A DNA stretch of 64,000 nucleotides from Antedon mediterranea. Taxonomy: Eukaryota; Animalia; Echinodermata. A program made the translations under genes and the position numbers. This document shows, piece by piece, positions 21,050-51,198 of the stretch. The DNA is taken from positions 12,755,432 through 12,819,431 of the forward strand of contig NC_092679.1 of assembly GCF_964355755.1 (NCBI RefSeq), given 5' to 3'. The notes beneath the pieces are model-generated. The model searched no databases. It was given only the letters and a program-made list of their open reading frames with translations, and was not told the origin of the DNA. Positions within the stretch are counted from its first letter, which is position 1. Each line of letters opens with the position of its first letter.

Positions 21050-21450
21050 TTTGAGATGACGTCATCATGTTAAAAGTTATTTCACCTATGCTACACTGTA
21101 TGTACAGTAGTATGTATACAGTATATAGTGTATACCTGTATAGATACTTTAGACACAAAATAGAGAGCACACCAACAAAAAGTATAATTTATATCATGCA
21201 CTAACTTTCTGTTGAAAAAATGGCATGTTCCACAGAATGTTAAAAATTAAAAATGCAAAAAAATCAATTTCTATGCGTTTCATATCATTTTAAGCATGTA
21301 TAAATTCGCACGTGCGTACAAATGTTTACGCGCGTGGTGTGCAGTGTTATAAAAATCATTTTTTTGCATGAATAACATTTTTCCAGTGTTTCTAGTAATT
21401 TTACTAAATTTGAAACCATATTGACTTAAAATCATAAGCATGTCAAATTA
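21050..21450 (+). mobile_element. Degraded HINE-family fragments in copy C intron 3
   Basis: tcacctatgctacactgtatg; atcatgcactaactttctgttgaaaaaa. 21250-21450 closely matches 1-300. Confidence 0.8.
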
Positions 21451-21577
21451 AAGCAGGATTTAATGTAGTAAATTAGGAAGTACTATATACCAAAGTGCAC
21501 ATTATGTCCAATTTACTGAAATTGGCTAGATTGTACTCAAATGATATTCAAATATTATATTATTATCTTTATTTTAG

Positions 21578-23930: not shown

Positions 23931-24169
23931 CAGCGGTGGGAGGCTGCAGGGGCTCTAGCCCCCTCGTTGGAGAGCCAAAGGCAAAAAGAGCCACTAGCTA
24001 GTTTTCTAAATTGTCTTAGCTCAGCCCCACTTTCGAGCTGGTCATAGATACTGTACTTACCGGTATACATTTCGTTTCATATTTCGAAGTATAATACAGT
24101 CAGTGCATTGTATGGGGACCTATAAGCTCTATTTAGGTGATCATTTAGAATAAAATGATCACATTCTTA

Positions 24170-25773
24170 TTAGTTATCCGCATTGAGCGGATAACTCCTT
24201 GTAACTGTCCTGTTTCATCATCTTTTTTTTTTTTTTTTTTCCCTGTATTCTTCTTTCTTTCTGTCATTTTTGTGTCTCGCGTAACTCAAAAACGTGTAAA
24301 CATAACATTTCATAACTTTGTCAACATGTGGGCATTTACGTGAAATTGTGCACCTCCTATTTTTGAATGACGTCAGAGTTGCGCAACATGACTTACGCGC
24401 GTTTTTCCGAATTTCGCGTATTTAACATAGATCGAAAACCATATAACTATTTAAATTGAAACTGAAAAAAAGTTTAAGTTATATCTTGCGCTAACTGACT
24501 ATGGGGAAAAAATGGCATGTTTCACACGAAGTTACGCGCGCACGCGCGTTTAAAATTTCAAATTGCGAAAAATCAATTTCTAATCATCTTTCTACGCGTT
24601 TCATGTCATTTTAAGCATGTAAAAAATTCCCACGCGCGCGCTTTTTTTTACGTGCGCGGTGCGAACGTAGCTTTGAAAACAATTTTTCTCCCGTGATTTA
24701 TATTTTCAAGCCTTTTATAGTAATTTTACCAACTTTGAAACAATTTCGACTTCAAATTACGTCATACGGGCACGTCGAATTGGATAATTTATGTGCGTTT
24801 TTGAGGAAAAAGTTCAAAAATTTGTCAAAATTATACCTTTTTTAAACAATCATAGATTCTAAACTACGAGGTGAACTTTGTTTAAATTACATATCCAGGA
24901 AGATGATAAGTTGTAGATAAGGAATCATGCATTGATATGGCAAACCGGACATTGTGACGTCATCGTATGGCCACGCGAATATAAAATATAGGATTTTTGT
25001 ATCTTTCGTCATAGCGCATCTCATTTAATAGAGTGCCTCTCCACTTATCCGTATTCCATTTTAACCCAGATTTTGAAATTTTCTAGGTCAATCAACTATC
25101 TTACGCAAGAGTAAATTTTTTTTAAATTTCTATGACATCATCATGTCTAAAAATGTAAATAACGTGGGTCACTTATATTTATCTTTACAGTAAATTTTAA
25201 TCTGTTATAGCTCATCAGAATAAAATGTGATAATCACGATTAAAACGTTTTCTGGAAGCTATTGGATTGTAGATACGAATTCATGTAAACATTTTGCCAA
25301 TCGGATGTTGTGACGTCATCATATGGCCAGTTGAATAAATAAAGACGTATTTTCATATTTTGCGTAATAGTTCATCACATTTAAAAGGGTGCGCATCTAT
25401 ATTTTACGTATTCAAATTTCTTCTACACGTTAATATGTTGTTCCTGAGATTATTTCCTTCTGAAATTGTTATCTAAGTGTTTCATTTTGATACCGTCGCC
25501 ATGTTAAAAATTGGAATAAATGGCGGGTCCCGTAATTTCACCTATTCTACACTGTATGTAATATGTATACAGATTATACTGTTTGCATGTACCGTATATA
25601 CTATATGACACAAAATTGACAGAATTCAGCACTAACAGCATATCATATTCTTCAGTTCTTGTCATAATTCCATAATCTTTATCTGTGTGCAATATTCCAA
25701 CTTATGACGTGCACGTGGCGTTTTGTCGTGGTGCGGATAACTAACTCGTCAATGTGACGAGTTTCATGTCTAG
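24170..25773 (+). mobile_element. HINE-type element H1 (A-type), uninterrupted
   Basis: Head AGTTATCCGC-attga-GCGGATAACT; tail GCGGATAACT, actcgtca-atg-tgacgagt, CTAG. Confidence 0.9.
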
Positions 25774-25844
25774 TTGGTTATCCGCAACGAAGTTGCAGGA
25801 TAACCTCTTGTGATTGTACGAAATCATCATCATCAACATCTTTT

Positions 25845-27432
25845 TTAGTTATCCGCACTCAGCGGATAACTCCTTGTAACTGTCCTGTTTCATCATCTTT
25901 TTTTTTTTTCTGTATTATTCTTTCTTTCTGTCATTTTTGTGCAGAGCATATCTCAAAAACGTGTAAAGTTAACATTTCATAACTTTGTCAACATATGGGT
26001 ATTCACCTGAAGTTGTGCTTTTCTATTTCTGAATGACGTCAGAATTGCACAACATGACTTACGCGCGTTTTAACGAATTTCGCGTATTTAACATACATCG
26101 AAAACCATATAACAATTTAAATTGAAACTTAACAAAAGTTTTAGTTATATCTTGCGCTAACTGACTTTGTAAAAAAAATGGCATGTTTTACACGAAGTTA
26201 CGCGCGCACGCGCGTTTAAAATTTCAAAACGCGAAAAATCAATTTCTAATCCACTTTCTACGCGTTTCATGTCATTTTGAGCAGGTAAAAAATTCCCACG
26301 CGTGCGCATTTTTTTACGCGCGCCGTGCGCACGTAGCGTTGAAAACAATTTTTTTCACGTGATTTATGTTTTTCCAGCCTTTTGTAGTAATTTTACCAAC
26401 TTTAAAAACGATTTAGACTTAAAATTACGTCATACGTGCACGTCGAATTGGATAATTTACGTGGGTTTTTGATGAAAAAGGTAAAAAATTCGTTAAAATT
26501 TGTCAAAATTATGCCTTTTTTTAAATAGTCGTAATTTCTAAACTGGACGGTCAACTTTTTGTGGATGACATATTCTTGAAGTTGATGAGGTGTAGATATC
26601 GGATCATGTAATAATATGGCTAACCGGACATTGTGACGTCATCGTATGGCCACGCGAATATAAAATATAGGATTTTTGTATCTTTCATCATAGCGCATGA
26701 CATTTAATAGAGCGCATCTCCAATTATCTGTTTTCCATTTTTACCCCGATTTTTATATTATCTAGGTCAATCAACTATCTTTCGTATGAGTTAAAAATAT
26801 TTTAATTTTTATGACGTCATCATGTCTAAAAATGTAAATAACGTGGGTCACTTATTTTCGTCTTTACAGTAAATTTCAATCTGTTATAGCTCGTCAGAAT
26901 AAAACGTGATAATCATGATTAAAACGTTTTCTGGAAGCTATTGGATTGTAGATACGAATTTATGTAAACATTTTGCCAATCGGATGTTGTGACGTCATCA
27001 TATGACCAGTTAAATAAAAAAAGTCGTATTTTCATCTTTTGCGTCATAATTCATCACATTTAAAAGAGCGCGCATCAATATTTTACGTATTTAAATTTCT
27101 TCTACACATTAATATGTTGTTGCCGAGATAATTTCCTTCCGAAATTGCTATCTTAGTATTTCATTTTGATACCGTCGCTATGTTAAAAATTGGAATAAAT
27201 GGCGGGTCCAGTCATTTCACCTATTCTACACAGTATGTAATATGTATACAGATTATATTGTATATAATACGACACAAAATAACAGAATTCAGCAATAACA
27301 ACATATCATATTCTTCAGTTCAGGTCATATTGCCACAATCTTTTTCTGTGTGCAATATTCTAACGTATGACGTCTACGTGGCCTTTGTCGTGCGGATAAC
27401 TAACTCGTCAAAGTGACGAGTTACATGTCTAG
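25845..27432 (+). mobile_element. HINE-type element H3 (A-type), uninterrupted
   Basis: A-type head and tail; near-identical to 35437-37024. Confidence 0.9.
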
Positions 27433-27572
27433 TTGGTTATCCGCAACGAAGTTGCAGGATAACCTCTTGTGATTGTACGAAATCATCATCTTTTTATTTT
27501 TGGTTATCCGCAACGAAGTTGCAGGATAACCTCTTGTGATTGTACGAAATCATCATCATCATCAACTTTTTA

Positions 27573-30500
27573 TTGGTTATCCGCAACGAAGTTGCAGGAT
27601 AACCTCTTGTGATTGTACGAAATCATCAACATCAACTTTTTATTGGTTATCCGCAACGAAGTTGCAGGATAACCTCTTGTGATTGTACGAAATCATCATC
27701 ATCATCATCATCATCAACTTTTTATTCTTCTTCTTTCTTTCTGTATGATTTTTGTGTAACGCTTTTCTCTAAAACTCGCAAACATAACATTTCGGTAACT
27801 ATGTTAACATTTTGACATTTATGTAACGTCGTCAAGCGAAGCTTTTCATGATGTTTACAATTGCGCAACGTGACGTACGCGCGATTTAACGATTTTCTCG
27901 TATCTAACATATGTCGAAAACCAAATAACATTTTAAAGTGAAACTTTGCAAAAGTTTAATTTATATCATGCGCTAACTTTCTGTTGAAAAAAAATTGCGT
28001 GTTTTACACAAAGTTACGCGCGCACGCGTATTTAAAATTTCAAAATGCGCAAATTTAATTTATAATCAACTTTCTACGCGTTTTATGTCGTTTTAAGCAT
28101 GTCAAAAATTCCCACGCGTGCGCACATTTTTACGTGTGCGGTGCGCACGTAGCATTGAAAACGTATTTTTTTCGCGTGATTTATGTTTTTCCAGCCTTTT
28201 CTAGCAATTTTACCAAATTTTAAACAATTTCGACTTAAAGATACGTCATACGAGCACGTCGAATTGGACAATTTGCGCGCGTTTTTTATGAAAAGGTTAA
28301 AAAATTCGTTTAAAATATGCCTTTTTTTAAACAGTCGTAATTTCTAAACTAGACGGTCAACTTTTTGTGGATGACATATTCTGGAAGTAGATGAGTTGTA
28401 GATATCGGATCAGGTATTAATATGGCTAACCGGACATTGTGACGTCATCGTATGGCCACGCGAATATAAAATTTAGGATTTTTGTATCTTTCGTCATAAC
28501 TCATCACATTGAATAGAGCGCATCTCCACCTATTCGTTTTCCATTTTCACCCTGATTTTGATATTGTCTAGGTCAATCAACTATCTTTCGCATGAGTTAA
28601 AAATATTTTAATTTTTTTGACGTCATCATGCCTAAAAATTTAAATCACGTGTGGCATCAATTTCATCTTTACAGTAAATTTTAATCTGTTATAGCTCGTA
28701 AGAATAAAATGTGATAATCACGATTAAAACTTTTTCTGGAAGCTATTGGACTGTAGATACGAAATTATGTAAAAATGTTGCCAATCGGATGTTGTGACGT
28801 CATCATATGGCCAGTTAAATAAAAAAGGTCGTATTTTCATCTTTTGCGTCATAATTCATTACATTTAAAAGAGCGCGCATCAATATTTCACGTATTCAAA
28901 TTTCTTCTACACGCTAATACGTTGTTGCTGAGATAATTTCCTTTCGGAATTGCTACCTTCGCGTTTTATTTTAAAACCGTCAACATGTTAAAAATTGCAA
29001 TAAATAGCAGGTCCCGTAATTTCACCTATTCTACACTGTATGTCACTGTATGTGATATGGATACAGAATATACTGTGTATACTATATATGAATTTAAATA
29101 ATAAAATTCAGCAATAACAACATATCATATTCTTCAGTTCAGATCATAATGCCAACGTGAACACTTCCTTTTGTCCTCAACCTATCCCCTTAATGTTAAT
29201 GTTGCACCACTTGCGCGGCGGATAACCAAACTCGTCAAAGTGACGAGTTACATGTCTAGTTTGTCTTCTTTCTTTCTGTATGATTTTTGTGGATCGCTTT
29301 TCTCTAAAACTTGCAAACATAACATTTTGTAACTTTCTCAACATATCGTCATGCACATGAAGATGTGCAGCGAAGCTTTTCATGATGTTTACAATTGCGC
29401 AACGTGACTTACGTGCGATTTAACGATTTTGTCGTATTTAACATAGCTTGACAACCAAATAACATTTCAACTTGAAACTTTGCAAAAGTTTAATTTATAT
29501 CATGCGCTAACTTTCTGTTGAAAAAAAATTGCGAGTTTTACACAAAGTTACGCGCGCACGCGCATTTAAAATTTCAAAATGCGCAAAATTAATTTATAAT
29601 CAACTTTCTACGCGTTTCATGTCGTTTTAAGCATGTCAAAAATTCCCACGCGTGCGCACATTTTTACGTGTGCGGTGCGCACGTAGCATTGAAAACGTAT
29701 TTTTTTCGCGTGATTTATGTTTTTCCAGCCTTTTCTAGTAATTTTACCAAATTTTAAACAATTTCGACTTAAAGATACGTCATACGAGCACGTCGAATTG
29801 GACAATTTGCGCGCGTTTTTTATGAAAAGGTTAAAAAATTCGTTTAAAATATGCCTTTTTTTAAACAGTCGTAATTTCTAAACTAGACGGTCAACTTTTT
29901 GTGGATGACATATTCTGGAATTAGATGAGTTTTAGATATCGGATCAGGTTTTAATATGGCTAACCGGACATTGTGACGTCATCGTCTGGCCACGCGAATA
30001 TAAAATTTAGGATTTTTTTATCTTTTGTCATAGCTCATCACATTGAATAGAGCGCATCTCCACTTCTCCGTTTTCCATTTTCACCCCGATTTTGATATTG
30101 TCTAGGTCAATCAACTATCTTTCGCATGAGTTAAAATTATTTTAATTTTTTTGACGTCATCATGCCTAAAAATTTAAATCACGTGTGGCATCAATTTCAT
30201 CTTTACAGTAAATTTTAATCTGTTATAGCTCGTAAGAATAAAATGTGATAATCACGATTAAAACTTTTTCTGGAAGCTATTGGATTGTAGATACGAAATT
30301 ATGTAAAAATGTTGCCCATTGGATGTTGTGACGTCATCATATGGCCAGTTAAATAAAAAAGGTCGTATTTTCATCTTTTGCGTCATAATTCATTACATGT
30401 AAAAGAGCGCGCATCAATATTTCACGTATTCAAATTTCTTCTACATGCTAATACGTTGTTGCTGAGATAATTTCCTTTCGGAAATGCTACCTTTGCGTTT

Positions 30501-30782
30501 CATTTTAAAACCGTCAACATGTTAAAAATTGCAATAAATAGCGGGTCCGTAATTTCACCTATTCTACACTGTATGTGATATGGATACAGATTATACTGTG
30601 TATACTATATATGAATTTAAATAATAAAATTCAGCAATAACAACATATCATATTCTTCAGTTCAGGTCATAATGCCAACGTGAACACTTCCTTTTGTCCT
30701 CAACCTATCCCCTTAATGTTAATGTTGCACCACTTGCGCGGCGGATAACCAAACTCGTCAAAGTGACGAGTTACATGTCTAG
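27573..30782 (+). mobile_element. HINE-type element H6 (G-type); body 29260-30782; hosts H7
   Basis: G-type head and headless G-type body. Confidence 0.8.
27643..29259 (+). mobile_element. HINE-type element H7 (G-type), uninterrupted, innermost
   Basis: Head GGTTATCCGCAAC-GAA-GTTGCAGGATAACC, (CAT)n; tail GCGGATAACC, hairpin, CTAG. Confidence 0.9.
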
Positions 30783-32307
30783 TTCTTCTTCTTTCTTTCT
30801 GTATGATTTTTGTGTAACGCTTTTCTCTGAAACTTGCAAACATAACATTTTGTTAACTATGTTAACATTTTGACATTTATGTAACGTCGTCAAGCGAAGC
30901 TTTTCATGATGTTTACAATTGCGCAAAGTGACGTACGCGCGATTTAACGATTTTCTCGTATTGAACATATGTCGAAAACCAAATAACATTTCAACTTGAA
31001 ACTTTGCAAAAGTTTAATTTATATCATGCGCTAACTTTCTGTTGAAAAAAAATTGCGTGTTTTACACAAAGTTACGCGCGCACGCGCATTTAAAATTTCA
31101 AAATGCGCGAAACTAATTTATAATCAACTTTCTACGCGTTTCATGTCGTTTTAAGCATGTAAAAAATTCCCACGCGTGCGCACATTTTTACGTGTGCGGT
31201 GCGCACGTAGCATTGAAAACGTATTTTTTTCGCGTGATTTATGTTTTTCCAGCCTTTTCATGTAATTTTACCAAATTTTTAACAATTTCGACTTAAAGAT
31301 ACGTCATACGAGCACGTCGAATTGGACAATTTGCGCGCGTTTTTTATGAAAAGGTTAAAAAATTCGTTTAAAATATGCCTTTTTTTAAACAGTCGTAATT
31401 TCTAAACTAAACGGTCAACTTTTTGTGGATGGCATATTCTGGAAGTAGATGAGTTGTAGATATCGGATCAGGTATTAATATGGCTAACCGGACATTGTGA
31501 CGTCATCGTATGGCCACGCGAATATAAAATTTAGGATTTTTGTATCTTTCGTCATAGCTCATCACATTGAATAGAGCGCATCTCCACTTATCCGTTTTCC
31601 ATTTTCACCCCGATTTTGATATTGTCTAGGTCAATCAACTATCTTTCGCATGAGTGAAAAATATTTTAATTTTTATGACGTCATCATGCCTAAAAATTGA
31701 AATCACGTGTGGCATCAATTTCATCTTTACAGTAAATTTTAATCTGTTATAGCTCGTAAGAATAAAATGTGATAATCACGATTAAAACTTTTTCTGGAAG
31801 CTATTGGATTGTAGATACGAAATTATGTTAAAATGTTGCCAATCGGATGTTGTGACGTCATCATATGGCCAGTTAAATAAAAAAGGTCGTATTTTCATCT
31901 TTTGCGTCATAATTCATTACATTTAAAAGAGCGCGCATCAATATTTCACGTATTCAAATTTCTTCTACACGCTAATACGTTGTTGCTGAGATAATTTACT
32001 TTCGGAATTGCTACCTTCGCGTTTCATTTTAAAACCGTCAACATGTTAAAAATTGCAATAAATAGCGGGTCCCGTAATTTCACCTATTCTACACTGTATG
32101 TGATATGGATACAGATTAGACTGTGTATACTATATATGAATTTAAATAATAAAATTCAGCAATAACAACATATCATATTCTTCAGTTCAGGTCATAATGC
32201 CAACGTGAACACTTCCTTTTGTCCTCAACCTATCCCCTTAATGTTAATGTTGCACCACTTGCGCGGCGGATAACCAAACTCGTCAAAGTGACGAGTTACA
32301 TGTCTAG

Positions 32308-33914
32308 TTGGTTATCCGCAACGAAGTTGCAGGATAACCTCTTGTGATTGTACGAAATCATCATCAACATCTTTTTCTTAATCTTCTTTCTTTCTGTATG
32401 ATTTTTGTGTAACGCTTTTCTCTAAAACTTGCAAACATAACATTTTGTTAACTATGTTAACATTTTGATATTTATGTAACGTCGTCAAGCGAAGCTTTTC
32501 ATGATGTTTACAATTGCGCAACGTGACGTACGCGCGATTTAACGATTTTCTCGTATTTAACATATGTCGAAAACCAAATAACATTTTAAAGTGAATTACT
32601 TTGCAAAAGTTTAATTTATATCATGCGCTAACTTTCTGTTGAAAAAAAATTGCGTGTTTTACACAAAGTTACGCGCGCACGCGCATTTAAAATTTCAAAA
32701 TGCGCAAAATTAATTTATAATCAACTTTCTACGCGTTTCATGTCGTTTTAAGCATGTCAAAAATTCCCACGAGTGCGCACATTTTTACGTGTGCGGTGCG
32801 CACGTAGCATTGAAAACGTATTTTTTTTGCGTGATTTATGTTTTTCCAGCCTTTTCTAGTAATTTTACCAAATTTTAAACAATTTCGACTTAAAGATACG
32901 TCATACGAGCACGTCGAATTGGACAATTTGCGCGCGTTTTTTATGAAAAGGTTAAAAAATTCGTTTAAAATATGCCTTTTTTTAAACAGTCGTAATTTCT
33001 AAACTAGACGGTCAACTTTTTGTGGATGACATATTCTGGAAGTAGATGAGTTGTAGGTATCGGATCAGGTATTAATATGGTTAACCGGACATTGTGACGT
33101 CATCGTATGGCCACGCGAATACAAAATTTAGGATTTTTGTATCTTTCGTCATAGCTCATCACATTGAATAGAGCGCATCTCCACTTATTCGTTTTCCATT
33201 TTCACCCCGATTTTGATATTGTCTAGGTCAATCAACTATCTTTCGCATGAGTTAAAAATATTTTAATTTTTTTGACGTCATCATGCCTAAAAATTTAAAT
33301 CACGTGTGGCATCAATTTCATCTTTACAGTAAATTTTAATCTGTTATAGCTCGTAAGAATAAAATGTGATAATCACGATTAAAACTTTTTCTGGAAGCTA
33401 TTGGATTGTAGATACGAAATTATGTAAAAATGTTGCCCATCGGATGTTGTGACGTCATCATATGGCCAGTTAAATAAAAAAGGTCGTATTTTCATCTTTT
33501 GCGTCATAATTCATTACATTTAAAAGAGCGCGCATCAATATTTCACGTATTCAAATTTCTTCTACACGCTAATACGTTGTTGCTGAGATAATTTCCTTTC
33601 GGAATTGCTACCTTCGCGTTTCATTTTTAAACCGTCAACATGTTAAAAATTGCAATAAATAGCGGGTCCCGTAATTTCACCTATTCTACACTGTATGTCA
33701 CTGTATGTGATATGGATACAGATTATACTGTGTATACTATATATGAATTTAAATAATAAAATTCAGCAATAACAACATATCATATTGTTCAGTTCAGGTC
33801 ATAATGCCAACGTGAACACTTCCTTTTGTCCTCAACCTATCTCCTTAATGTTAATGTTGCACCACTTGCGCGGCGGATAACCAAACTCGTCAAAGTGACG
33901 AGTTACATGTCTAG
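32308..33914 (+). mobile_element. HINE-type element H8 (G-type), uninterrupted
   Basis: G-type head and tail. Confidence 0.9.
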
Positions 33915-35436
33915 TTCTTCTTTCTTTCTGTATGATTTTTGTGTAACGCTTTTCTCTAAAACTCGCAAACATAACATTTCGGTAACTATCTTAACATATT
34001 GACATTTACGTAACGTCGTCAAGCGAAGCTTTTCATGATGTTTGCAATTGCGCAACGTGACGTACGCGCGATTTAACGATTTTCTCGTATTTAACATATG
34101 TTGAAAACCAAATAACATTTCAACTTGAAACTTCGCAAAAGTTTAATTTATATCATGCGCTAACTTTATGTTGAAAAAAAATTGCGTGTTTTACACAAAG
34201 TTACGCTCGCACGCGCATTTAAAATTTCAAAATGCGCAAAATTAATTTCTAATCAACTTTCTACGCGTTTCATGTCGTGTTAAGCATGTCAAAAATTCCC
34301 ACGCGTGCGCACATTTTTACGTGTGCGGTGCGCACGTAGCATTGAAAACGTATTTTTTTCGCGTGATTTATGTTTTTCCAGCCTTTTCTAGTAATTTTAA
34401 CCAATTTTAAACAATTTCGACTTAAAGATACGTCATACGAGCACGTCGAATTGGACAATTTGCGCGCGTTTTTTATGAAAAGGTTAAAAAATTCGTTTAA
34501 AATATGCCTTTTTTTAAACAGTCGTAATTTCTAAACTAGACGGTCAAATTTTTGTGGATGACATATTCTAGAAGTAGATGAGTTGTAGATATCGGATCAG
34601 GTATTAATATGGCTAACGGGACATTGTGACGTCATCGTATGGTCACGCGAATATAAAATTTAGGATTTTTGTATCTTTCGTCATAGCTCATCACATTGAA
34701 TAGAGCGCATCTCCACTTATCCGTTTTCCATTTTCACCCCGATTTTGATATTGTGTAGGTCAATCAACTATCTTTCGCATGAGTTAAAAATATTTTAATT
34801 TTTTTGACGTCATCATGCCTAAAAATTTAAATCACATGTGGCATCAATTTCATCTTTACAGTAAATTTTAATCTGTTATAGCTCGTAAGAATAAAATGTG
34901 ATAATCACGATTAAAACTTTTTCTGGAAGCTATTGGATTGTAGATACGAAATTATGTAAAAATGTTGCCAATCGGATGTTGTGACGTCATCATATGGCCA
35001 GTTAAATAAAAAAGGTCGTATTTTCATCTTTTGCGTCATAATTCATTACATTTAAACGAGCGCGCATCAATATTTCACGTATTCAAATTTCTTCTACACG
35101 CTAATACGTTGTTGCTGAGATAATTTCCTTTCGGAATTGCTACCTTCGCGTTTCATTTTAAAACCGTAAACATGTTAAAAATTGCAATAAATAGCGGGTC
35201 CCGTAATTTCACCTATTCTACACTGTATGTGATATGGATACAGATTATACTGTGTATACTATATATGAATTTAAACAATAAAATTCAGCAATAACAACAT
35301 ATCATATTCTTCAGTTCAGGTCATAATGTCAACGTGAACACTTCCTTTTGTCCTCAACCTATCCCCTTAATGTTAATGTTGCACCACTTGCGCGGCGGAT
35401 AACCAAACTCGTCAAAGTGACGAGTTACATGTCTAG

Positions 35437-37024
35437 TTAGTTATCCGCACTCAGCGGATAACTCCTTGTAACTGTCCTGTTTCATCATCTTTTTTTTTTT
35501 TCTGTATTATTCTTTCTTTCTGTCATTTTTGTGCAGAGCATATCTCAAAAACGTGTAAAGTTAACATTTCATAACTTTGTCAACATATGGGTATTCACCT
35601 GAAGTTGTGCTTTTCTATTTCTGAATGACGTCAGAATTGCACAACATGACTTACGCGCGTTTTAACGAATTTCGCGTATTTAACATACATCGAAAACCAT
35701 ATAACAATTTAAATTGAAACTTAACAAAAGTTTTAGTTATATCTTGCGCTAACTGACTTTGTAAAAAAAATGGCATGTTTTACACGAAGTTACGCGCGCA
35801 CGCGCGTTTAAAATTTCAAAACGCGAAAAATCAATTTCTAATCCACTTTCTACGCGTTTCATGTCATTTTGAGCAGGTAAAAAATTCCCACGCGTGCGCA
35901 TTTTTTTACGCGCGCCGTGCGCACGTAGCGTTGAAAACAATTTTTTTCACGTGATTTATGTTTTTCCAGCCTTTTGTAGTAATTTTACCAACTTTAAAAA
36001 CGATTTAGACTTAAAATTACGTCATACGTGCACGTCGAATTGGATAATTTACGTGGGTTTTTGATGAAAAAGGTAAAAAATTCGTTAAAATTTGTCAAAA
36101 TTATGCCTTTTTTTAAATAGTCGTAATTTCTAAACTGGACGGTCAACTTTTTGTGGATGACATATTCTTGAAGTTGATGAGGTGTAGATATCGGATCATG
36201 TAATAATATGGCTAACCGGACATTGTGACGTCATCGTATGGCCACGCGAATATAAAATATAGGATTTTTGTATCTTTCATCATAGCGCATGACATTTAAT
36301 AGAGCGCATCTCCAATTATCTGTTTTCCATTTTTACCCCGATTTTTATATTATCTAGGTCAATCAACTATCTTTCGTATGAGTTAAAAATATTTTAATTT
36401 TTATGACGTCATCATGTCTAAAAATGTAAATAACGTGGGTCACTTATTTTCGTCTTTACAGTAAATTTCAATCTGTTATAGCTCGTCAGAATAAAACGTG
36501 ATAATCATGATTAAAACGTTTTCTGGAAGCTATTGGATTGTAGATACGAATTTATGTAAACATTTTGCCAATCGGATGTTGTGACGTCATCATATGACCA
36601 GTTAAATAAAAAAAGTCGTATTTTCATCTTTTGCGTCATAATTCATCACATTTAAAAGAGCGCGCATCAATATTTTACGTATTTAAATTTCTTCTACACA
36701 TTAATATGTTGTTGCCGAGATAATTTCCTTCCGAAATTGCTATCTTAGTATTTCATTTTGATACCGTCGCTATGTTAAAAATTGGAATAAATGGCGGGTC
36801 CAGTCATTTCACCTATTCTACACAGTATGTAATATGTATACAGATTATATTGTATATAATACGACACAAAATAACAGAATTCAGCAATAACAACATATCA
36901 TATTCTTCAGTTCAGGTCATATTGCCACAATCTTTTTCTGTGTGCAATATTCTAACGTATGACGTCTACGTGGCCTTTGTCGTGCGGATAACTAACTCGT
37001 CAAAGTGACGAGTTACATGTCTAG
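35437..37024 (+). mobile_element. HINE-type element H9 (A-type), uninterrupted
   Basis: A-type head and tail; its incidental ORFs are identical to those of H3. Confidence 0.9.
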
Positions 37025-38710
37025 TCTTAATCTTCTTTCTTTCTGTATGATTTTTGTGTAACGCTTTTCTCTAAAACTTGCAAACATAACATTTTGTTAA
37101 CTATGTTAACATTTTGACATTTATGTAACGTCGTCAAGCGAAGCTTTTCATGATGTTTACAATTGCGCAACGTGACGTACGCGCGATTTAACGATTTTCT
37201 TGTATTTAACATATGTCGAAAACCAAATAACATTTTAAAGTGAAACTTTGCAAAAGTTTAATTTATATCATGCGCTAACTTTCTGTTGAAAAAAAATTGC
37301 GTGTTTTACACAAAGTTACGCGCGCACGCGCATTTAAAATTTCAAAATGTGCAAAATTAATTTATAATCAACTTTCTTCGCGTTTCAAGTCGTGTTAAGC
37401 ATGTCAAAAATTCCCACGCGTGCGCAAATTTTTACGTGTGCGGTGCGCACGTAGCATTGAAACGTATTTTTTTCGCGTGATTTATGTTTTTCCAGCCTTT
37501 TCTAGTAATTTTACCAAATTTTAAACAATTTCGACTTAAAGATACGTCATACGAGCACGTCGAATTGGACAATTTGCGCGCGTTTTTTATGAAAAGGTTA
37601 AAAAATTCGTTTAAAATATGCCTTTTTTTAAACAGTCGTAATTTCTAAACTAGACGGTCAAATTTTTGTGGATGACATATTCTAGAAGTAGATGAGTTGT
37701 AGAGATCGGATCAGGTATTAATATGGCTAACCGGACATTGTGACGTCATCGTATGGTCACGCGAATATAAAATTTAGGATTTTTGTATCTTTCGTCATAG
37801 CTCATCACATTGAATAGAGCGCATCTCCATTTATCCGTTTTCCATTTTCACCCCGATTTTGATATTGTGTAGGTCAATCAACTATCTTTCGCATGAGTTA
37901 AAAATATTTTAATTTTTTTGACGTCATCATGCCTAAAAATTTAAATCACGTATGGCATCAATTTCCTCTTTACCGTAAATTTTATTCTGTTATAGCTCGT
38001 AAGAATAAAATGTGATAATCACGATTAAAACTTTTTCTGGAAGCTATTGGATTGTAGATACGAAATTATGTAAAAATGTTGCCCATCGGATGTTGTGACG
38101 TCATCATATGGCCAGTTAAATAAAAAAGGTCGTATTTTCATCTTTTGCGTCATAATTCATTACATTTAAAAGAGCGCGCATCAATATTTCACGTATTCAA
38201 ATTTCTTCTAAACGCTAATACGTTGTTGCTGAGATAATTTCCTTTCGGAATTGCTACCTTCGCGTTTCATTTTAAAACCGTCAACATGTTAAAAATTGCA
38301 ATAAATAGCGGGTCCCGTAATTTCACCTATTCTACACTGTATGTGATATGGATACCGATTATACTGTGTATACTATATATGAATTTAAATAATAAAATTC
38401 AGCAATAACAACATATCATATTCTTCAGTTCAGGTCATAATGCCAACGTGAACACTTCCTTTTGTCCTCAACCTATCCCCTTAATGTTAATGTTGCACCA
38501 CTTGCGCGGCGGATAACCAAACTCGTCAAAGTGACGAGTTACATGTCTAGTTAGTTATCCGCACTATGGCGGATAACTCCTTGTAACTGTCCTGTTTCAT
38601 CATCTTTTTTTTTTTTTTTTTCTGTATTATTAGTTATCCGCTTAGTAGCGGATAACTCCTTGTAATCGTCCTGTTTCATCATATTTTTTTTTTTTTCTGT
38701 ATTATACTTA

Positions 38711-41700
38711 TTAGTTATCCGCTTAGTAGCGGATAACTCCTTGTAATCGTCCTGTTTCATCAAATTTTTTTTTTCTGTATTATTAGTTATCCGCTTAGTA
38801 GCGGATAACTCCTTGTAACTGTATGAAATCATCTTTTTTTTCTGTATTATTCTTTCTTTCTGTCAATTTTGTGTCTCGCGTATCTCAAAAACTTGTAAAC
38901 AAAACATTTTATAACTTTGTCAACATGTGGGCATTCACGTGAAATTGTGCACCTCCTATTGTGAATGACGTCAGAATTGCGCAACGTGATTTACGCGCGT
39001 TTTAACGAATTTCGCGTATTTAACATAGATCGAAAACCATATAGTAATTTAAATTGAAACTTAACAAAAGTTTAATTTATATCTTGCGCTAATTGACTGT
39101 GGGAAAAAAATGGCATGTTTCACACGAAGTTACGCGCGCAAGGGCGTTTAAAATTTCAAAATGCGAAAAATCAATTTCTAATCAACTTTCTACGCGTTTC
39201 ATGTCATTTTGAGCATGTCAAAAATTCCCACGCGCGCGCATATTTTTACTCGCACGGTGCGCACGTAGCGTTGAAAATAAATTTTTTTCACCTGATTCAT
39301 GTTTTTCCAGCCTTTTCTAGTAATTTTACCAACTTTTGAACAATTTTGACCTAAAACTACGTCATACGGGCACATCCAATTGGATAATTTACGTGCGTTT
39401 TTGATGAAAAAGTTCAAAAATTTGTCAAAATTCGTCAAAATTATGCCTTTTTTTAAACATTCATAGATTCTAAACTACGAGGTGAACTTTTTTTAAATTA
39501 TATATTCTCGAAGTTGATGAGTTGTAGATATGGAATAATGCATTAATATGGCTAATGGGACATTATAACGTCATCGTATGGCCACGCGAATATAAAATAT
39601 AGGATTTTTATATCTTTCGTCATAGCGCAACACATTTAATAGAGCGCATCTCCACTTATCCATTTTTTATTTTCAACCTGATTTTGATATTGTCTTGGTG
39701 AATGAACTATCTTTCGCATGAGTTAAAAATATTTTAATTTTTATGACGTCATCATGTCTAAAAATGTAAATAACGTGGGTCAACTATTTTCATCTTTACA
39801 GTAACTTTCAATCTGTTATAGCTCGTCAGAATAAAACGTGATAATCATGATTAAAACGTTTTCTGGAAGCTATTGAATTGTAGATACGAATTCATGTAAA
39901 CATTTTGCCAATCGGATGTTGTGACGTCATCATATGGCCAGTTGAATAAAAAAAGGCGTATTTTCATATTTTGCGTAATAGTTCATCACATTTAAAAGGG
40001 CGCGCATCTATATTTTACGTATTCAAATTTCTTCTACACGTTAATATGTGGTTGCTGAGATAATGTCCTTCCGAAATTGCTAACTTAGTGTTTCATTTTG
40101 ATACCGTCGCCATGTTAAAAATAAGAATAAATGGGGGGTCTCGTAATTTCACCTATTCTACACTGTATGCAACATGTATACAGAGTATACCGTTTGCACT
40201 GTATACTATACGACACAAAATAGACTGAATTCAGCACTAACAACGTATGATATTCTTCAGTTCAGGTCATAATGCCATAATCTTTATCTGTGTGCAATAT
40301 TCCAACGTATGACGTGCACGTGGCGTTTGTCGTGCGGATAACTAACTCGTCAAAGTGACGAGTTTCATGTCTAGTACTTCTTTCTTTCTGTCATTTTTGT
40401 GCGTCGCGTTTCTCTAAAACGTGTAAACAGAACATATCGTAACTTTGTCAACATATCGACATTTACGTGAACTTGTGCACCTCCTATTTTTGAATGACGT
40501 CAGAGTTGCGCAACGTGACTTACGTGCGATTTTATGAATTTCAATGATTGATCATAGACTAAAAACCAAACATAATTTTGTTTTGAAACTTTGTGAAAAT
40601 TTAAGTCATATCAAGCGCAAACTTTCTATGGATTAAAAATAGCATGTTTCACAAAAAGTTACGCGCGCACGCGCGTTTAAAATTTTAACGTGCGAAATAT
40701 TAACTTCTAATCAACTTTCTATGCGTTTCATGTCATTTTGAGCATGTCAAAAATTCCCACGCGCGCGAACATTTTTACGCACGCGGTGCACACGTAGCGT
40801 TAAAAACATATTTTTTTCGCGTGATTTATGTTTTTTCAGCCTTTTCTAGTAATGTTACCAAATTTTAAACAATTTCGACTTAAAATTACGTCATACGAGC
40901 ACGTCGAATTAGATAATTTGCACGCGTATTTGGTGAAAAAGTTAAAAAATTCGTCAAAATTATGCCTATTTTTAAACAGTCATAGATTCTAAACTACATG
41001 GAGAACTTTTTTTTAATTACATATTCTGGAAGTTGATGAGTTGTAGATATCGGATCATGCATTAATAAGGCTAACCGGACTTTGTGACGTCATCGTATGG
41101 CCACGCGAATATAAAATAGAGGATTTTTGTCTATTTCGTCATAGCTCATCACATTTAATAGAGCGCATCTCCACTTATTCGTTGTCCATTTTCATTCCGA
41201 TTTTAATATATTCTAGATCTATCAACAATCTTTTGCATGAATTAAAAATTTTTTAATTTTGTTAACGTCATCATGCCTAAAAATTTAAATTACGTTGGTC
41301 ATTAATTTCATCTTTACAGTAAATTTTAATCAGTTATGCCTCGTAAGAATAAAATGTGATAATCACAATTAAAACGTTTTCAGGAAGCTATTGTATTGTA
41401 GATACAAAATCATGTGTAAATTGTGCCAATCGAATGTTGTGACGTCATCATATGGCCAGTTAAATAAAAAAAGTCGTATTTTCATCTTTTGCATTATATT
41501 TCATTACATTTAAAAGAGCGCGCATCAATATTTCACGTATTCAAATTTCTTCTACACGTTAATACGTTGTTGCTGAGATAATTTCATTCAGAAATTTCTA
41601 CTTTTACATTTCATTTTGAAACCGTCAAGATGTTAAAAATTACAATAAAATACGGGTCCCGTAATTTCACCTATTTTACACTGTTTGTGATATGTATACA

Positions 41701-41881
41701 GATTGTACTGTGTATACTATATGACACAAAATAACAGAATTCAGAAATAACATATCATATTCTTCAGTTCAGGTCATAATGCCTTAATATTTTTCTGTGT
41801 GCAATATTCTAACGTATGACGTGCACGTGGCGTTTGTCGAGCGGATAACTAACTCGTCAAAGTGACGAGTTTCATGTCTAG
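38711..41881 (+). mobile_element. HINE-type element H12 (A-type); body 40375-41881; hosts H13
   Basis: Rejoined junction ctgtatta+tacttctttctttctgtc, which aligns without gaps to rejoined H11. Confidence 0.85.
38783..40374 (+). mobile_element. HINE-type element H13 (A-type), uninterrupted, innermost
   Basis: A-type head and tail. Confidence 0.9.
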
Positions 41882-44800
41882 TTTCCTTCCGTCATTTTTG
41901 TGCGTCGCGTTTCTCTAAAACGTGTAAACAGAACATATCGTAACTTTGTCAACATATCGACATTTACGTGAACTTGTGCACCTCCTATTTTTGAATGACG
42001 TCAGAGTTGCGCAACGTGACTTACGCGCGATTTTATGAATTTCAATGATTGATCATAGACTGAAAACCAAACATAATTTTGTTTTGACACTTTGTGAAAA
42101 TTTAAGTCACATCAAGCGCAAACTTTCTATGGATTAAAAATAGCATCTTTCACAAAAAGTTACGCGCGCACGCGCGTTTAAAATTTTAGAGTGCGAAAAA
42201 TCAACTTCTAATCAACTTTCTATGCGTTTCATGTCATTTTGAGCATGTCAAAAATTCCCACGCGCGCGAAACTTTTTACGCACGCGGTGCACACGTAGCG
42301 TTAAAAACATGCTTTTTTCGCGTGATTTATGTTTTTTCAGCCTTTTATAGTAATGTTACCAACTTTTAAACAATTTCGACTTAAAATTACGTCATACGAG
42401 CACGTCGAATTAAATAATTTGCACGCGTTTCTGATGAAAAAGTTTAAAAATTCGTCAAAATTATGCCTATTTTTAAACAGTCATAGATTCTAAACTACAT
42501 GGAGAACTTTTTTTTAATTACATATTCTGGAAGTTGATGAGTTGTAGATATCGAATCATGCATTAATATGGCTAACCGGACATTGTGACGTCATCGTATG
42601 GCCACGCGAATATAAAATATAGGATTTTTGTCTCTTTCGTCATAGCTCATCACATTTAATAGAGCGCATCTCCACTTATTCGTAGTCGATTTTCATCCCA
42701 ATTTTAATATATTCTAGGTCAATCAACTATCTTTTGCATGAATTAAAAAATTTTTAATTTTTTTAACGTCATCATGCCTAAAAATTTAAATTACGTTGGT
42801 CATTAATTTCATCTTTACAGTAAATTTTAATCTGTTATAGCTCGTAAGAATAAAATGTGATAATCACGATTAAAACGTTTTCAGGAAGCTATTGTATTGT
42901 AGATACAAAATCATGTGAAAATTGTGCCAATCGAATGTTGTGACGTCATCATATGGCCAGTTAAATACAAAAAGTCGTATTTTCATCTTTTGCGTTATAT
43001 TTCATTACATTTAAAAGAACGCGCATCAATATTTCACGTATTCAAATTTCTACTACACGTTAATATGTTGTTGCTGAGATAATTTCATTCTGAAATTTCT
43101 ACTTTTGCATTTCATTTTGAAACCGTCAAGATGTTAAAAATTACAATAAAATACGGGTCCCGTAATTTCACCTATTTTACACTGTTTGTGATATGTATAC
43201 AGATTGTACAGTGTATACTATGTATATGACACAAAATAACAGAATTCAGAAATAACAACATATCATATTCTTCAGTTCAGGTCATAATGCCTTAATATTT
43301 TTCTGTGTGCAATATTCTAACGTATGACGTGCACGTGGCGTTTGTCGAGCGGATAACTAACTCGTCAAAGTGACGAGTTTCATGTCTAGTTCTTCTTTCT
43401 TTCTGTCATTTTTGTGCAGAGCGTATCTCTAAAACGTGTAAAGTTAACATGTTATAACTTTGTCAACATATGGGCAATCACATGAAGTTGTGCTTTCCTA
43501 TAATTGAATGACGTCAGAGTTGCGCAACAAGACTTACGCACGTTTTTATGAATTTCGCGTATTTAACATAGATCGGAAACCATATAACAATTTAAATTGA
43601 AACTTAGCAAAAGTCTAATTTATATCGTGCGCTAACTTTTTATGCACTAAAAATGGCACGTTTTACACGAAGTTATGCGCGCACGCGCGTTTAAAATTTT
43701 ACAATGCGAAAAATCAATTTCTAATCAACTTTCTACGCGTTTCATGTCATTTTGAGCATGTCAAAAATTCCCACACGTGCGCAAATTTTTACGCGCGTGG
43801 TGCACACGTAGCTTTAAAAACGTCATTTTTTCGAGTGATTTATGTTTTTCCAGCCTTTTCTATTAATTTTACCAACTTTTAAACAATTTCGACTTCAAAT
43901 TACGTCATACGAGCACGTAGAATATGATAATTTGCGCGCTTTTTTGATGAAAAACTTCAAAAATTCGTCAAAATTAAGCCTTTTTTTAAACAATCGTAGT
44001 TTCTAAACTAAACGGTAAAAATTATTTTTATTACATATTCTGGAAGTTGATGAGTTGTAGATATCAGATCATGGATTAATATGGCTAACCGGACATTGTG
44101 ACGTCATCGTATGGCCACGCGAATATGAAATTTAGGATTTTTGTATCGTTCGTCATAACTCCTCACATTTAATAGAGCGCATCTCCACTTATCCGTTTTC
44201 CATTTTCACCCCAAATTTGATATTGTCTAGGTCAATCAACTATATTTAGCATGAGTTAAAAATATTTTAATTTTTATGACGTCATCATGCCTAAAAATTT
44301 AAATGACGTGTGGCATTAATTTCATCTTTACAGTAAATTTCAATCTGTTATAGCTCGTAAAAATAAAATGTGATAATCACGATTAAAACGTTTTCTTGAA
44401 GCTATTGGATTGTAGATACAAAATCTTGCCAATCGGATGTGGTGACGTCATCATATGGCCAGTTAAATAAAAAAAGTCGTATTTTCATATTTTGCGTCAT
44501 AGTTCATTACATTTAAAAGAGCGCGCATTAATATTTCACGTATTCAAATTTCTTCTACACGTTAATATGTTGTTGCTGAGATAATTTCCTTCCAAAATTG
44601 CTACCTTCGCGTTTCATTTTAAAACCATCAACATGTTAAAAATTGCAATAAATAGCGGGTCCCGTAATTTCCCCTATTCTACACTGTATGTGATATGTAT
44701 ACAGATTACACTGTGTATACTATATATGAATCAAAATAATAGAATTCAGCAATAACAACATATCATAGTCTTCAGTTCAGGTCATAATTCCATAATCTTT

Positions 44801-46753
44801 TTCCGTGTGCAATATTCCAACGTATGGCGTGGACGTGGCGTTTGTCGTGCGGATAACTAACTCGTCAAAGTGACGAGTTTCATGTCTAGTTATTTATTTC
44901 TCTCTGTACAGATTTTGTGTAACAAATATCTCAAAAAGTTTAATGTTAATGATTACCATAATTTCACAATGTCTTTCAAATACGTTAACTTAGTCCTAAT
45001 AAGCTTTTCAGCGTGATCACTCATCCGTGACGTCACGTATACGCCATTTTGTGAAATCACATTATCAATCATATCTCCATAATTCATTATCACATATTAA
45101 TGAAAATCACTACACGTAAACTTGAGGTCAAGATAAAAAATATTAGCAAATAAAAACTCGGGCGTTTCAAGGTCATGCGCGTGAAATCGCGCGTTGAAAT
45201 TTTAAAAAGCTCAAAATTTAGTTTTTATCAATTTAGAGCATGAAATAGGCCATTTGCGTGTTTAAAAAAATTACTGCGCAAAAACACATTTTTGCGCACG
45301 CGATTTTTAAAAAGGGTACAAAATAAAATTTGATGTATACATCATATTCTATTCACAATCCTTAGTACATTCTCCGACTTTGAGTCCATTCCGACTTAAA
45401 ATAACGCTATACGAGCACGTTAAAAATGACAAAATGCGCACATTAATTGTACAAAAGTGCTAAAAATGGTAAAAAAATAAGGCCTTTTTAAAATGAATAT
45501 AACTCTACAGAATGGCAGGTGACCCCCAATTTTTTTAACTTATTATGGAAGCCAATAAGTTGTAGATATAAATATATATACATATTAGACGTACAAAATG
45601 GTATGACGTCATCAAATGGCCACTTGAATTTAAAAATTAGTAATTATTATCTTTTTGTGTGGGTTATCACATTCAATAGAGCGCATCTCCGTTATTTGAG
45701 CCCAATTTTTGCACACATTTTAGTATGTGCTTGCTCAATTAATTATCTTTCTCATAAGTTGTCAACATTTTTATTTTGATGACGTCATCACGCGTAAAAA
45801 CTTGAATAACTTAGGTCGTGTAATTTCAGCTACACCATACATTTGAATATCTTATAGCTCCTCAGAATTAAAGGTGACCTTGAAGATTATAATTTATTAT
45901 GAAAGCTGATGAAATGTAGATATGAATTCATATAAAAATTAAGCCTATCGGATGTTGTGATGTTATCATATGGCCAGTTGAAGTTAAAAAGTAGTTTTTA
46001 AATTTCTTTAGTCGAAGTTATACAAATTTCAAAGAGCGCGCATTGCGCTTCTACGTGTCAAATTCTCTTCCAATCCTTATATTTTTTTGCTCAATTCATT
46101 ATCTTTCGAAATTGTCATCTTCGAGTTTATTTTGATAATTCCATCATACCAAAAAATTTTAACTTGATGTGTGTCCCATAATTTCACCTATGCTACACTG
46201 TATATAGATATACAGTATATACTGTACATTGTATATGGCATATAATAGGCATAACTCAGCAATATAAGCGTATAATAGGATGGCATACATCAACATTTTC
46301 CTATCGTATGTTAACGTACGTACATGTTTAAAAAAAATTAATTTCATTAAAATGATAAAAATGATCACCTATAATTCGTCAAAGTGACGAATTAAATTCT
46401 AGTTTTCAATTGTTTTTGTTTTAGCTCTATTTAACTCTATTTTTCTAAATGTTCTTAGTTCCATCCCAGCCTTGGTGGGCTGGTTCTCTGTAGACTTGTA
46501 ATTTTGTTTCTTATGTATAATTGCAATTTCCGGGGACCTAGCAGCCCATGGGTGTTAGTCTCGCGCATTTATAATTTCCATACCCCTAGGCAGCAACCAA
46601 CCTACGTCTCTTCTATTAACGATATACTATAATGGCTACCCTAAATCTGATTAAAACGGCTTCAAATTACGCTAGAACGCATAGCTTTCGGGGGCCCTTG
46701 GCGGCCCCCAGCATAGTGATGCTTGCATCACTCGCATAGCCCAACGCCCACCC

Positions 46754-48646: not shown

Positions 48647-51198
48647 ATTATCCACGAGACTGCACTGACATACTTGAAAGCAACAGTGAAGCAACAAGTG
48701 GTGCTTACATGATCAATATTCATGATGGAGGTGAACCATTCAGAGTTTACTGCGATATGGACACTGATGGAGGTGGATGAACGGTAGGTTTAATCAATAA
48801 GACACATAATATTCATGGATGCATATACATAAACTGGAGCAAGTTGGGTGGTCCTGTAATTAAGAGAATCTAAGTAGATCAGAAAATGAAATAATAAGCA
48901 AAACATTTTCTTTACCTCGAAACATTGCAGTATAGGAATAGTAAATTTTCAATATTCTTGCAATAAATGTACTAAATGTTAGCTTTCTATTACAATTATT
49001 ATTATTTTATGAAGGTTTTTCAGAGACGAGAAGATGGATCTATGAATTTCTATAGAAATTGGGCAGCATACAAGGTAGGGTTTCGGAATTTTAATGGTGA
49101 GCACTGGCTTGGTAATGATAACATTTATCGTCTTAGATCTGATGGTCACTTTGAATTGAGAGTGGGCATGTCAACATTTGAAGGAGGATCAGCATACGCT
49201 CACTATGACAACTTTCGAATAGGTGATGAGAGAAGTAACTACATACTGACATTTGGCACTTACAGTGGCAATGCAGGTAGGGTTTAGCTAATTATTGTCT
49301 AATGTTAAAGATGTATTGTCCCTTTGTCAAATTCCAAAAAAAATAAAAATAAAAAGATTTCGAAAAAAAGTGGGTCATTTTGAAGTATCATAATAGTTAT
49401 TAACTTTCACCAAAAATTAGTCGAAAAAAAAATCATTTAACTGAAATACAGACGTTTTTTGGTTAAAAAAATAACTTTGACTTCCAGTCAAAGTTTTCGA
49501 TCAAAACATATCTTATAATACAATGCGCTAATTTGGCTACTCTGTATGCATAATCATAAAACTTCCTCGCGATCTGTGTGAAAACACCTTCTCAACTGTG
49601 ACGAGTTGTAAACAATCCTAATTAGCATCATGCATAATGTATACTCATGGTTTGAAATCTTTGTTTACTTTCGCTCACGACTATTTTCAGACGAAATGTA
49701 ATCAAATTAATTTAGCTGTTAATTACGTAAAATTGTTGTTTTTGGCTCGAATTTTCGACTTAAAGTGAATAACTTTAATATTACTTTGATATGGCCAATT
49801 AAAATTTTTTCATTCATTTTTTTGTGTTTCAAGGGACAATATTATTTAATGTTCCCACCTAACTCTCATACTTCTTTAATCCACACTTTTCAATTATCTG
49901 ATGATCTTTTATCCTACCGTTTCTAGTTCGTTTCATACTTTTATGTGTTTTTATTAATTTCTTGAGTGTGTAGAAAACTGTCCGTTGTTTCACTCCCGCA
50001 CTGCTTGTCAGAAATGTCTTTCATACGCAACATTTTTCTTTGGCATATAATAAAAATTCAGCGCTTCTGGTTCTTTTTCATACATGTCATCTTCTTTTGT
50101 CAATATTTCAAATAATTGCTACACACCTTCTCTTCGCTGTATGTAGTAAAATCATGGAGTACTCCATAGTAAAATAGCCCTGTCTGCTGATTATTTTCTA
50201 CATTCTACCATTATATATAACTCAAATGCCAAGAGCTTGGCTATATCTGTCATTTCGAAACTAGGGATTGAGTTTACTTAAAAAGCCACAATTTATATAT
50301 AATTTTTATATATAAAAAACCTTTTGTAAAGTAATGGTTTTTGCTTCACTTTGATATTTATTTGTTATAATTCAATGTAAACTAATATTTAATTAATTGA
50401 TATTTGTATACCCATTTGTACTGTCTTAGTAGTTAACAATTGTACTGTCAACACAGCCTTGTATAGTAACACCAAATAATAGTGAAACAAACTATTGTGT
50501 TTAAAGAAAGTTATAATAATAATAATAAAAATAAAATAATAATAATAATACCACCAACTTACTATTTATTACTATTTAACATCTATATTCAGTTTACTAA
50601 CAAATTGACTTGATTTCTTTAATATTTCATATAACGACACTTTATCTTCCACACGATTTATATACTATATATATATAACATGTTTTTATTCTTCATAAGG
50701 TAGAGTTACTTTAATTTTATTATTGAGGATATTACGTTATATGAGTGCCATGCACTCCTAAAATGCATGTTTTATGCAGGAGATCCGATCAATAGTCACC
50801 TCTCTAGCTCTAAGGATTGAAATTGCTATACTACATCATCAATAATATTCCTCATTTCAAGTATAGGGCCTATTAATAATTAATTTTCAATGATTGCATA
50901 AAAAAACAAATTTTGTATCAAGGTAATTAAAAAAAATGATTTTATTTTAGGAGACTCATTGGCGGAACATAACAATCAAAAGTTTTCAACATTCGACCAA
51001 GACAATGACTCGTCTTCACGATCATGTGCTGTGGATTTCAAAGGAGCCTGGTGGTATGGTTCCGATCATGATTCAAATCTGAATGGATTGTACTTGGGTG
51101 GTATAAATAGTCAGTCTCACCAAGGTGTGATTTGGGCACATTATAAAGGAGATTACTACTCCTTGAAAACTACTGTGATGAAGATACGTAGAGTTTAA
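48647..51198 (+). pseudogene. FReD copy D: exons 48647-48783, 49015-49276, 50951-51198; exon 1 not found
   Basis: Canonical GT/AG and phases. TGA at 48778-48780 replaces Trp of GGWT. The P-domain Cys is lost (WWYGSDH). Confidence 0.85.
49309..49845. mobile_element. Kolobok-like MITE (TTAA TSD) in copy D intron 3
   Basis: ttaa-agatgtattgtccctt ... aagggacaatattat-ttaa. Confidence 0.7.

Follow-up and report, generated by a model that had tools for sequence, protein, structure and literature searches.

Between positions 24132 and 46402 of the window, the whole 64,000-nucleotide stretch of Antedon mediterranea DNA analysed here, 14 transposable elements form a balanced nest, one inside another to a depth of six, and are best read as non-autonomous Helentron/HLE2-like (HINE-like) elements. 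The array probably grew as new copies inserted, time after time and by a rolling-circle mechanism, into a pyrimidine-rich tract 37–81 bp inside the 5' ends of their relatives.

Architecture of the nest

Motif scans of the window, with 3 mismatches tolerated in the hairpin scan, located 14 heads (13 with A/B cores and one divergent) and 14 tail hairpins, each with CTAG, all on the + strand; in the ~41.7 kb of the window outside the array, the scans found neither head cores nor tail hairpins. These are the positions listed in a first-pass annotation of the sequence, with the outer head possibly starting one base later (24133, not 24132) if a paralogous empty site is used as guide. Read as a stack, heads and tails gave the parse H0[H1,H2[H3,H4[H5[H6[H7]],H8],H9],H10[H11[H12[H13]]]], with a depth of six and nothing left unpaired, identical to the bracket nest that the annotation had proposed. 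Six elements (E1, E3, E7, E8, E9, and E13) are intact and eight are split into a head of 37–81 bp and a body of ~1.5 kb. All 13 inner copies have the same orientation, which is that of the host. Heads crowd the left side of the array and headless bodies the right, giving it a satellite-like appearance.

The outermost element, E0, has a head (24133..24169) with a type C sub-terminal inverted repeat (subTIR), a 5' hairpin, and a T-rich tract, and hosts E1, E2, and E10; its body and tail (44890..46402), with ~60% identity to A/B bodies, carry the 3' subTIR, hairpin, and CTAG. At depth 2, E1 (24170..25773) is an intact type A copy, and the type B element E2 (head 25774..25844, body and tail 37025..38550) hosts E3, E4, and E9. 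The intact type A copies E3 (25845..27432) and E9 (35437..37024), both at depth 3, flank the type B element E4 (head 27433..27499, body and tail 33915..35436), also at depth 3, which hosts E5 and E8. E5 (head 27500..27572, body and tail 30783..32307; type B, depth 4) hosts E6 (head 27573..27642, body and tail 29260..30782; type B, depth 5), which hosts the innermost copy, E7 (27643..29259), intact, of type B and at depth 6. E8 (32308..33914) is an intact type B copy at depth 4. The third occupant of E0, E10 (head 38551..38629, body and tail 43390..44889), is a type A element at depth 2 and hosts E11 (head 38630..38710, body and tail 41882..43389; type A, depth 3). E11 in turn hosts E12 (head 38711..38782, body and tail 40375..41881; type A, depth 4; 96.8% identical to E11), and E12 hosts the intact type A copy E13 (38783..40374) at depth 5.

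E0 interrupts a ~120-bp host repeat, of which the left half (23998..24132, + strand) is 72% identical to a paralogous array at 54575–54853 (− strand) and the right half (46403..46540, + strand) carries on the sequence of the paralogue. The paralogue runs uninterrupted across the rebuilt site, with no target duplication.

Identity and anatomy of the elements

The elements are 1.55–1.62 kb long and consist of a 5' TT, a subTIR folded into a 5' hairpin, a microsatellite tract, a body, a 3' subTIR, a hairpin, and CTAG. A 5' hairpin overlapping the subTIR was found in all seven elements folded, the microsatellites behind it are CAT, T-run, and CTTT tracts, and the 3' stem-loop lies downstream of the 3' subTIR. 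The Helentron/DINE-1/HINE layout of subTIRs, 5' inverted repeat, microsatellite, and 3' stem-loop, which the annotation had recognized, is thus present in the elements folded or scanned. Coding capacity is absent, with the longest stop-free frame of the 14 rebuilt elements spanning 66–95 amino acids, and an Rfam search of the elements gave no hit. No RepHel was seen among the long ORFs scanned, nine of the window's 27 ORFs. Rolling-circle mobility of the elements is predicted from their structure. The 3' hairpin and CTAG end of all 14 tails agree with the 3' hairpin plus CTRR of canonical Helitrons (HLE1). Assignment to HLE1 was rejected on the 5' end, which starts TT[AG]G with subTIRs present, where canonical Helitrons start with TC and have no terminal inverted repeats. 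Decayed related pieces lie at 1–488 and 21076–21452 of the window.

A T follows all 14 tails, and the ends can be placed in two registers, as TT...CTAG inserted into A^T or as T...CTAGT inserted into T^T. In the first register the eight target sites comprise six A^T and two T^T dinucleotides; shifted by one base, they become six T^T, one T^C, and one T^A. Because the shifted register fits equally well, the insertion order of siblings cannot be fixed, and an earlier reading with an A^T target and siblings arriving from right to left was withdrawn.

Pairing of heads with tails and excision of inner copies

The subTIRs fall into seven of type A (TTAGTT), six of type B (TTGGTT), and one of type C, with equal numbers of heads and tails in each type (7/7, 6/6, and 1/1). 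They are perfect over 12–14 bp in all 14 bracket pairs, with the 3' copy ending 29–31 bp from the 3' end, and every head has a tail of its own subTIR type, as the annotation had stated. The agreement extends to finer variants, a 14-bp form shared by the head and tail of E10 and a 13-bp form in E11 and E12. Balance is expected in 1 of 15 random orders of 14 heads and 14 tails and a match of all types in 1 of 24,024 arrangements (1 of 280 for the eight interrupted hosts), values that overstate the case because the types cluster along the array. Type matches number 12/14 when each tail is given to the closest head upstream of it and 10/14 under first-in-first-out pairing; the two tails that discriminate between the parses, the B tail (38550) and the C tail (46402), are accounted for by nesting alone.

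Excision of the inner copies yields eight hosts of 1551–1598 bp, compared with 1588–1617 bp for the six intact copies, and the rebuilt hosts have no target duplication. When the head of E2 is joined to its body 11 kb away, the rebuilt junction is identical letter for letter to intact E8 (score 0), and the rebuilt junction of E5 is likewise identical to intact E7. The expectation that innermost-first excision would restore elements resembling solo copies was borne out to this extent, in lengths and in the E2 and E5 junctions, with copies in the window as the reference. Among the 24 possible B pairings the nested one ranks joint first, tied with a swap of H5 and H6 because these two heads end identically; among the six A pairings it is also joint first, and here the 13th subTIR base breaks the tie.

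Distances between heads agree with those between bodies for the seven interrupted A/B hosts (Mantel r = 0.96, 48/5040 permutations), the head trees resting on ~110 columns with poor resolution within type B. The congruence of head and body trees anticipated in the annotation therefore holds over the split A/B hosts and is weak within type A (r = 0.38, 46/720; six sequences, E9 being omitted as a duplicate). The intact E13 has a hairpin like those of E11/E12 and a body like that of E1, and looks chimeric in sequence.

Related copies in public sequencing runs

Part of the outer body with the right flank is contained in nine public runs. With intact E8 as bait, four runs yielded matching contigs, 19,307 in X6 and 330, 89, and 41 in the other runs, X4, X1, and X2; the family is dispersed and high-copy. 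The joints listed for X6, possibly the window's own source, include the joint between the E7 tail and the E6 body. Also among them are a head-to-head joint and a joint of tail, 9 bp, and head, both absent from the window, which we infer to come from a single further nest, where two insertions lie 9 bp from each other within the same head. In X1, from another study, a C-type tail lies flush with an A-type head, a joint that is again absent from the window. With three head/tail junctions foreign to the window, self-insertion recurs elsewhere. The E7-tail/E6-body joint has ~4–7 times the depth of the rare joints in X6, where depth does not equal copy number, and given this depth composites may be copied as units. 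The head-to-head and tail–9 bp–head joints of X6 are similar in depth. A further X6 joint of tail, three letters, and body was dropped as a new junction, since it lies about one base from the E6-tail/E5-body junction and is inexact in the window. A scan of metagenome contigs for the combined subTIR and hairpin pattern gave no matches; 52 metagenome matches to an 18-base hairpin pattern were attributed to chance, with no BLAST match of at least 30 bp to any rebuilt element.

Proposed origin and independence of the insertions

In the proposed mechanism, a RepHel transposase encoded elsewhere would make single-stranded circles of the elements, and these would be joined into a nick on the T-rich strand. 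The nick would fall behind a resident head because the tract there exceeds every other stretch of the element in pyrimidine content and lies beside the hairpin and subTIR that the transposase would bind. Every insertion would supply a new head and hence a new landing tract, and the junction would remain usable afterward, giving rise to both nesting and flush siblings. For the canonical Helitron Helraiser, passages of PMC4778049 describe nicking of one strand, circles joined precisely head to tail, insertion into AT-rich targets, and bypass of the 3' end, and report no local hopping.

The sequences of neighboring copies bear on whether each insertion was independent. At the five flush tail-head junctions the partners are 80.4, 83.6, 83.6, 83.8, and 97.8% alike, child and host are 59–97.5% identical, and no child equals its host. 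The B copies are not local duplicates, because they differ at 28–71 columns and share no identical run longer than 225 bp; their bodies share variants in a mosaic pattern, so the family has recombined. Rolling-circle concatemers are marked by identical or near-identical neighbors and, usually, unbalanced ends; here neighbors are 80–98% alike and the ends are balanced, with only E3/E9 fitting the concatemer pattern. From these comparisons, neither concatemers nor local duplication account for the array, with the exception of E3/E9. These two copies, which directly flank the E4 block, are identical over 1588 bp and could represent a dimer that E4 later split, a pair of sister insertions of very recent date, or the product of conversion. 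Local hopping as their source finds no backing in Helraiser, for which the passages of PMC4778049 report none. Unless E3 and E9 both postdate E4, the five B copies E4–E8 would have arrived within less than ~0.2% divergence; with donors differing by 2–4%, such an arrival would amount to a fast burst. The annotation's proposal of growth by repeated, independent insertion therefore stands for nesting as the main process, as supported by the dissimilar neighbors and rebuilt junctions, and falls short for the independence of all 14 copies, given the identity of E3 and E9.

A mixed origin deserves serious consideration, although we would put it at somewhat below an even chance. Most of the array would still be due to self-targeted insertion, with E3–E9 arising as one rolling-circle dimer (or by copying or conversion), E4 inserting later at the junction, and some composite sub-nests moving as units that bypass inner terminators; such an origin modifies the preferred explanation and does not replace it. 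The identity and placement of E3 and E9 point in this direction, and their dimer junction would be a T^T target in the shifted register. The precise head-to-tail circles and 3' end bypass described for Helraiser (PMC4778049) would provide for both dimers and composites, and the deep E7-tail/E6-body joint in X6 fits the movement of composites. Against this, all other neighbors differ by 2–20% or more, and a composite running from H4 to its own tail must pass four near-identical terminators. Multi-head chimeras of the kind in Fig. 7 of PMC5148889 furthermore predict more heads than tails, whereas the counts here are equal.

Insertion zone and proposed targeting

Self-targeted insertion is supported by where the inner copies landed. 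In all eight hosts the landing offset is 37–81 bp from the 5' end, a single ~45-bp zone, with 106–134 potential TT[AT]T sites per host over the two strands (log10 P about −10.8 for 8/8 offsets, the interval having been chosen after the fact). The flanks of the array hold 2,439 TT[AT]T sites and zero intact copies. In all five distinct intact sequences the landing tract outranks every other 40-mer in pyrimidine content; in type A its pyrimidine share is 0.82–0.95, compared with 0.72–0.78 elsewhere in the element, and in type B the margin is thin (0.80–0.82 compared with 0.78). Where the host is of type A or B, 8 of the 10 insertions placed like in like, a pattern that may reflect type preference or simply bursts of activity.

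It is unlikely that the nest formed with no active targeting, by insertion at any T-rich site followed by survival of harmless insertions in older repeats. HINEs do favor T-rich targets, and unrelated Helitrons directly adjoining each other are reported (passages of PMC4067079); the landing tract, moreover, exceeds the rest of the element in pyrimidine content. Selection, however, would be blind to orientation and to an offset of 70 compared with 700 in a non-coding element, and the insertions struck one ~45-bp zone in 8/8 hosts with 13/13 copies in the same direction. A strong plain sequence preference for the tract would look the same here as hairpin-guided targeting. In our view, the tract and the adjacent hairpin/subTIR probably share in drawing insertions. 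More tentatively, and with rather less than even confidence, the 5' end may be viewed as a landing pad, a strategy in which transposase at the resident 5' subTIR/hairpin would steer integration into the tract and favor its own subTIR type. If so, many new copies would land harmlessly in old ones, and the process would be self-feeding, producing satellite-like arrays without concatemers and with an insertion order readable from the brackets.

A satellite origin would have rolling-circle concatemers or unequal exchange duplicate the heads (as a 70-bp unit) and the bodies (as a 1.5-kb unit) separately, with the balance being coincidental. The stacked heads do resemble short tandem repeats, adjacent B bodies are 96–98% alike, nearest-head pairing already gives the 12/14 type matches noted above, and plant arrays in which the two ends differ in number are reported (Xiong et al. 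2016, as cited in passages of the review PMC12628747). What such duplication leaves unexplained is the agreement in haplotype between the E2 head and its body 11 kb away, the match of the C head and C tail across 21 kb, and the subTIR sub-variants and equal counts within types. In addition, bodies that adjoin each other show no greater similarity than bodies farther apart and lack a long identical tract. The type pairing, junction, and neighbor-identity comparisons largely refute this origin, and we consider it very improbable. An assembly artifact that stitched dispersed copies together, which the high copy number of the family and the one identical pair (E3/E9) might suggest, is the least credible account and can scarcely be entertained, as mis-joins do not yield 13 distinct sequences with balanced types, junctions precise to the base, and a clean empty site, and the E7-tail/E6-body junction recurs in independently assembled contigs.

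Comparison with known elements and significance

The elements agree with HINE/DINE-1 families, as described in passages of PMC4067079 (Thomas et al. 2014), PMC7492417 (oyster Cg_HINE), and PMC11417382 (HLE2), in being non-coding, in having subTIRs and a 5' inverted repeat overlapping the subTIR, in the short variable microsatellite behind the 5' repeat, and in the 3' stem-loop after the 3' subTIR. Absence of target duplication, T-rich targets, and families defined by subTIRs are likewise shared. The subTIRs of 12–14 bp compare with a HINE criterion of about 11–17 bp; they lie 0–2 and 29–31 bp from the ends, compared with 2–4 and 38–60 bp in mite HINEs. In contrast to HINEs, the end here is a fixed CTAG(T), with an A^T or T^T target depending on register; the central tandem array of HINE/DINE-1 elements is also absent, and the microsatellite itself is the landing site. 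The same passages describe no such nests. The proto-Helentron of Phytophthora (passages of PMC4067079 and PMC11417382) shares the 5' TT, the 3' CTAG, insertion into A^T (one of the two registers here), and the lack of target duplication. It is a 14-kb coding element with inverted repeats and stem-loop arranged otherwise, whereas the present elements are 1.6-kb non-coding ones with the standard HINE layout.

Self-insertion at the 5' end is already known from the non-canonical FoHeli Helitrons of Fusarium and Metarhizium (Chellapan et al. 2016; passages of PMC5148889), in which repeated 5' ends of less than 200 bp (with cases of 31–85 nt) were ascribed to it. A three-copy case in M. acridum was attributed either to a 5' end that was inserted into twice or to rolling-circle replication, and one insertion lay 2 bp from another copy. 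As portrayed there, these are mostly multi-head, single-tail chimeras of at most three copies, whereas here 14 copies of three subTIR families are nested six levels deep, every head retains its own tail, and the whole nest is preserved. To the extent covered by those passages, the array is an unusually complete and deep example of HINE-like self-targeting. The HELIANO study noted that one HLE2 from a frog has two left ends, arranged as direct repeats (passages of PMC11417382). Tandem Helitron arrays (Xiong et al. 2016) are also satellite-like arrays of transposon copies and differ in having unequal ends and one donor, and dimers formed by double insertion (McGurk and Barbash 2018) likewise yield tandem copies through an insertion-site preference; those double insertions occupy adjacent positions at a site of the host, whereas here each element brings the site with it, which makes the process self-feeding and allows nesting (both as summarized in passages of PMC12628747). 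The full-text literature searched, most subscription papers lying outside it, yielded no description of a HINE nest both deep and balanced, and the passages of PMC11934779, PMC12001565, and PMC13286980 held nothing relevant to nesting.

The 13 insertions in one ~45-bp zone and one orientation provide a sharp, testable hypothesis that sets the tract against the hairpin. To our knowledge, the biochemistry of how Helentron/HLE2 elements choose their targets has yet to be worked out. Nesting of this kind offers a way for transposons to become satellites that does not pass through concatemers, and it could readily give rise to the multi-headed elements described from fungi and frogs. The brackets of the nest can be used to order the activity of the subfamilies without a molecular clock. 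Repeat annotators will label such arrays as satellites or truncated fragments and miscount the copies. No effect of the array on a host gene is evident. The window also contains fibrinogen-domain exons, a LINE, and LTR-type pol sequence.

Composition and surroundings of the nested array

The outermost element of the nest, E0, has as its target one copy of a degenerate tandem repeat with a unit of ~100–120 bp, the halves of which lie at 23998–24132 and 46403–46540; the repeat is found in two places in the window, the other being 54575–54853 on the minus strand. In the intact element E13, the 5' hairpin within 38783–38840 resembles that of the split hosts E11 and E12 and is followed by a B-like stretch, and the body is similar to that of the intact type A element E1. 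From this arrangement of sequence, E13 is likely to represent a chimeric subfamily.

The nest is flanked on both sides by genes of a tandem cluster encoding the fibrinogen C-terminal domain (PF00147; 20597–21831, 48976–49287, and 57770–58240), and related DNA is present near 600–1435, 50913–51199, and 59165–60866. Decayed fragments of the nest family that lack ends are located at 1–488 and 21076–21452 (68–82% compared with the nest bodies). The latter sits between two fibrinogen-domain exons and appears to have been copied along with the gene.

A long inverted repeat (arms 11296–12704 and 13740–15180, 85% over ~1.45 kb) resembles a foldback transposon. Its arms contain 15-bp tandem arrays with 20- and 35-bp repeats on either side. 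A second foldback-like inverted arrangement, with 14-bp and 40-bp tandem repeats, occupies 53740–54530. The window also contains a LINE on the minus strand (4083–7412) with an ORF for endonuclease and RT and, upstream of it, an ORF that carries a zinc knuckle and a weak GDSL-esterase-like domain, and a plus-strand LTR-retrotransposon pol (61773–63932; RT, RNase H, and integrase) interrupted by a stop.
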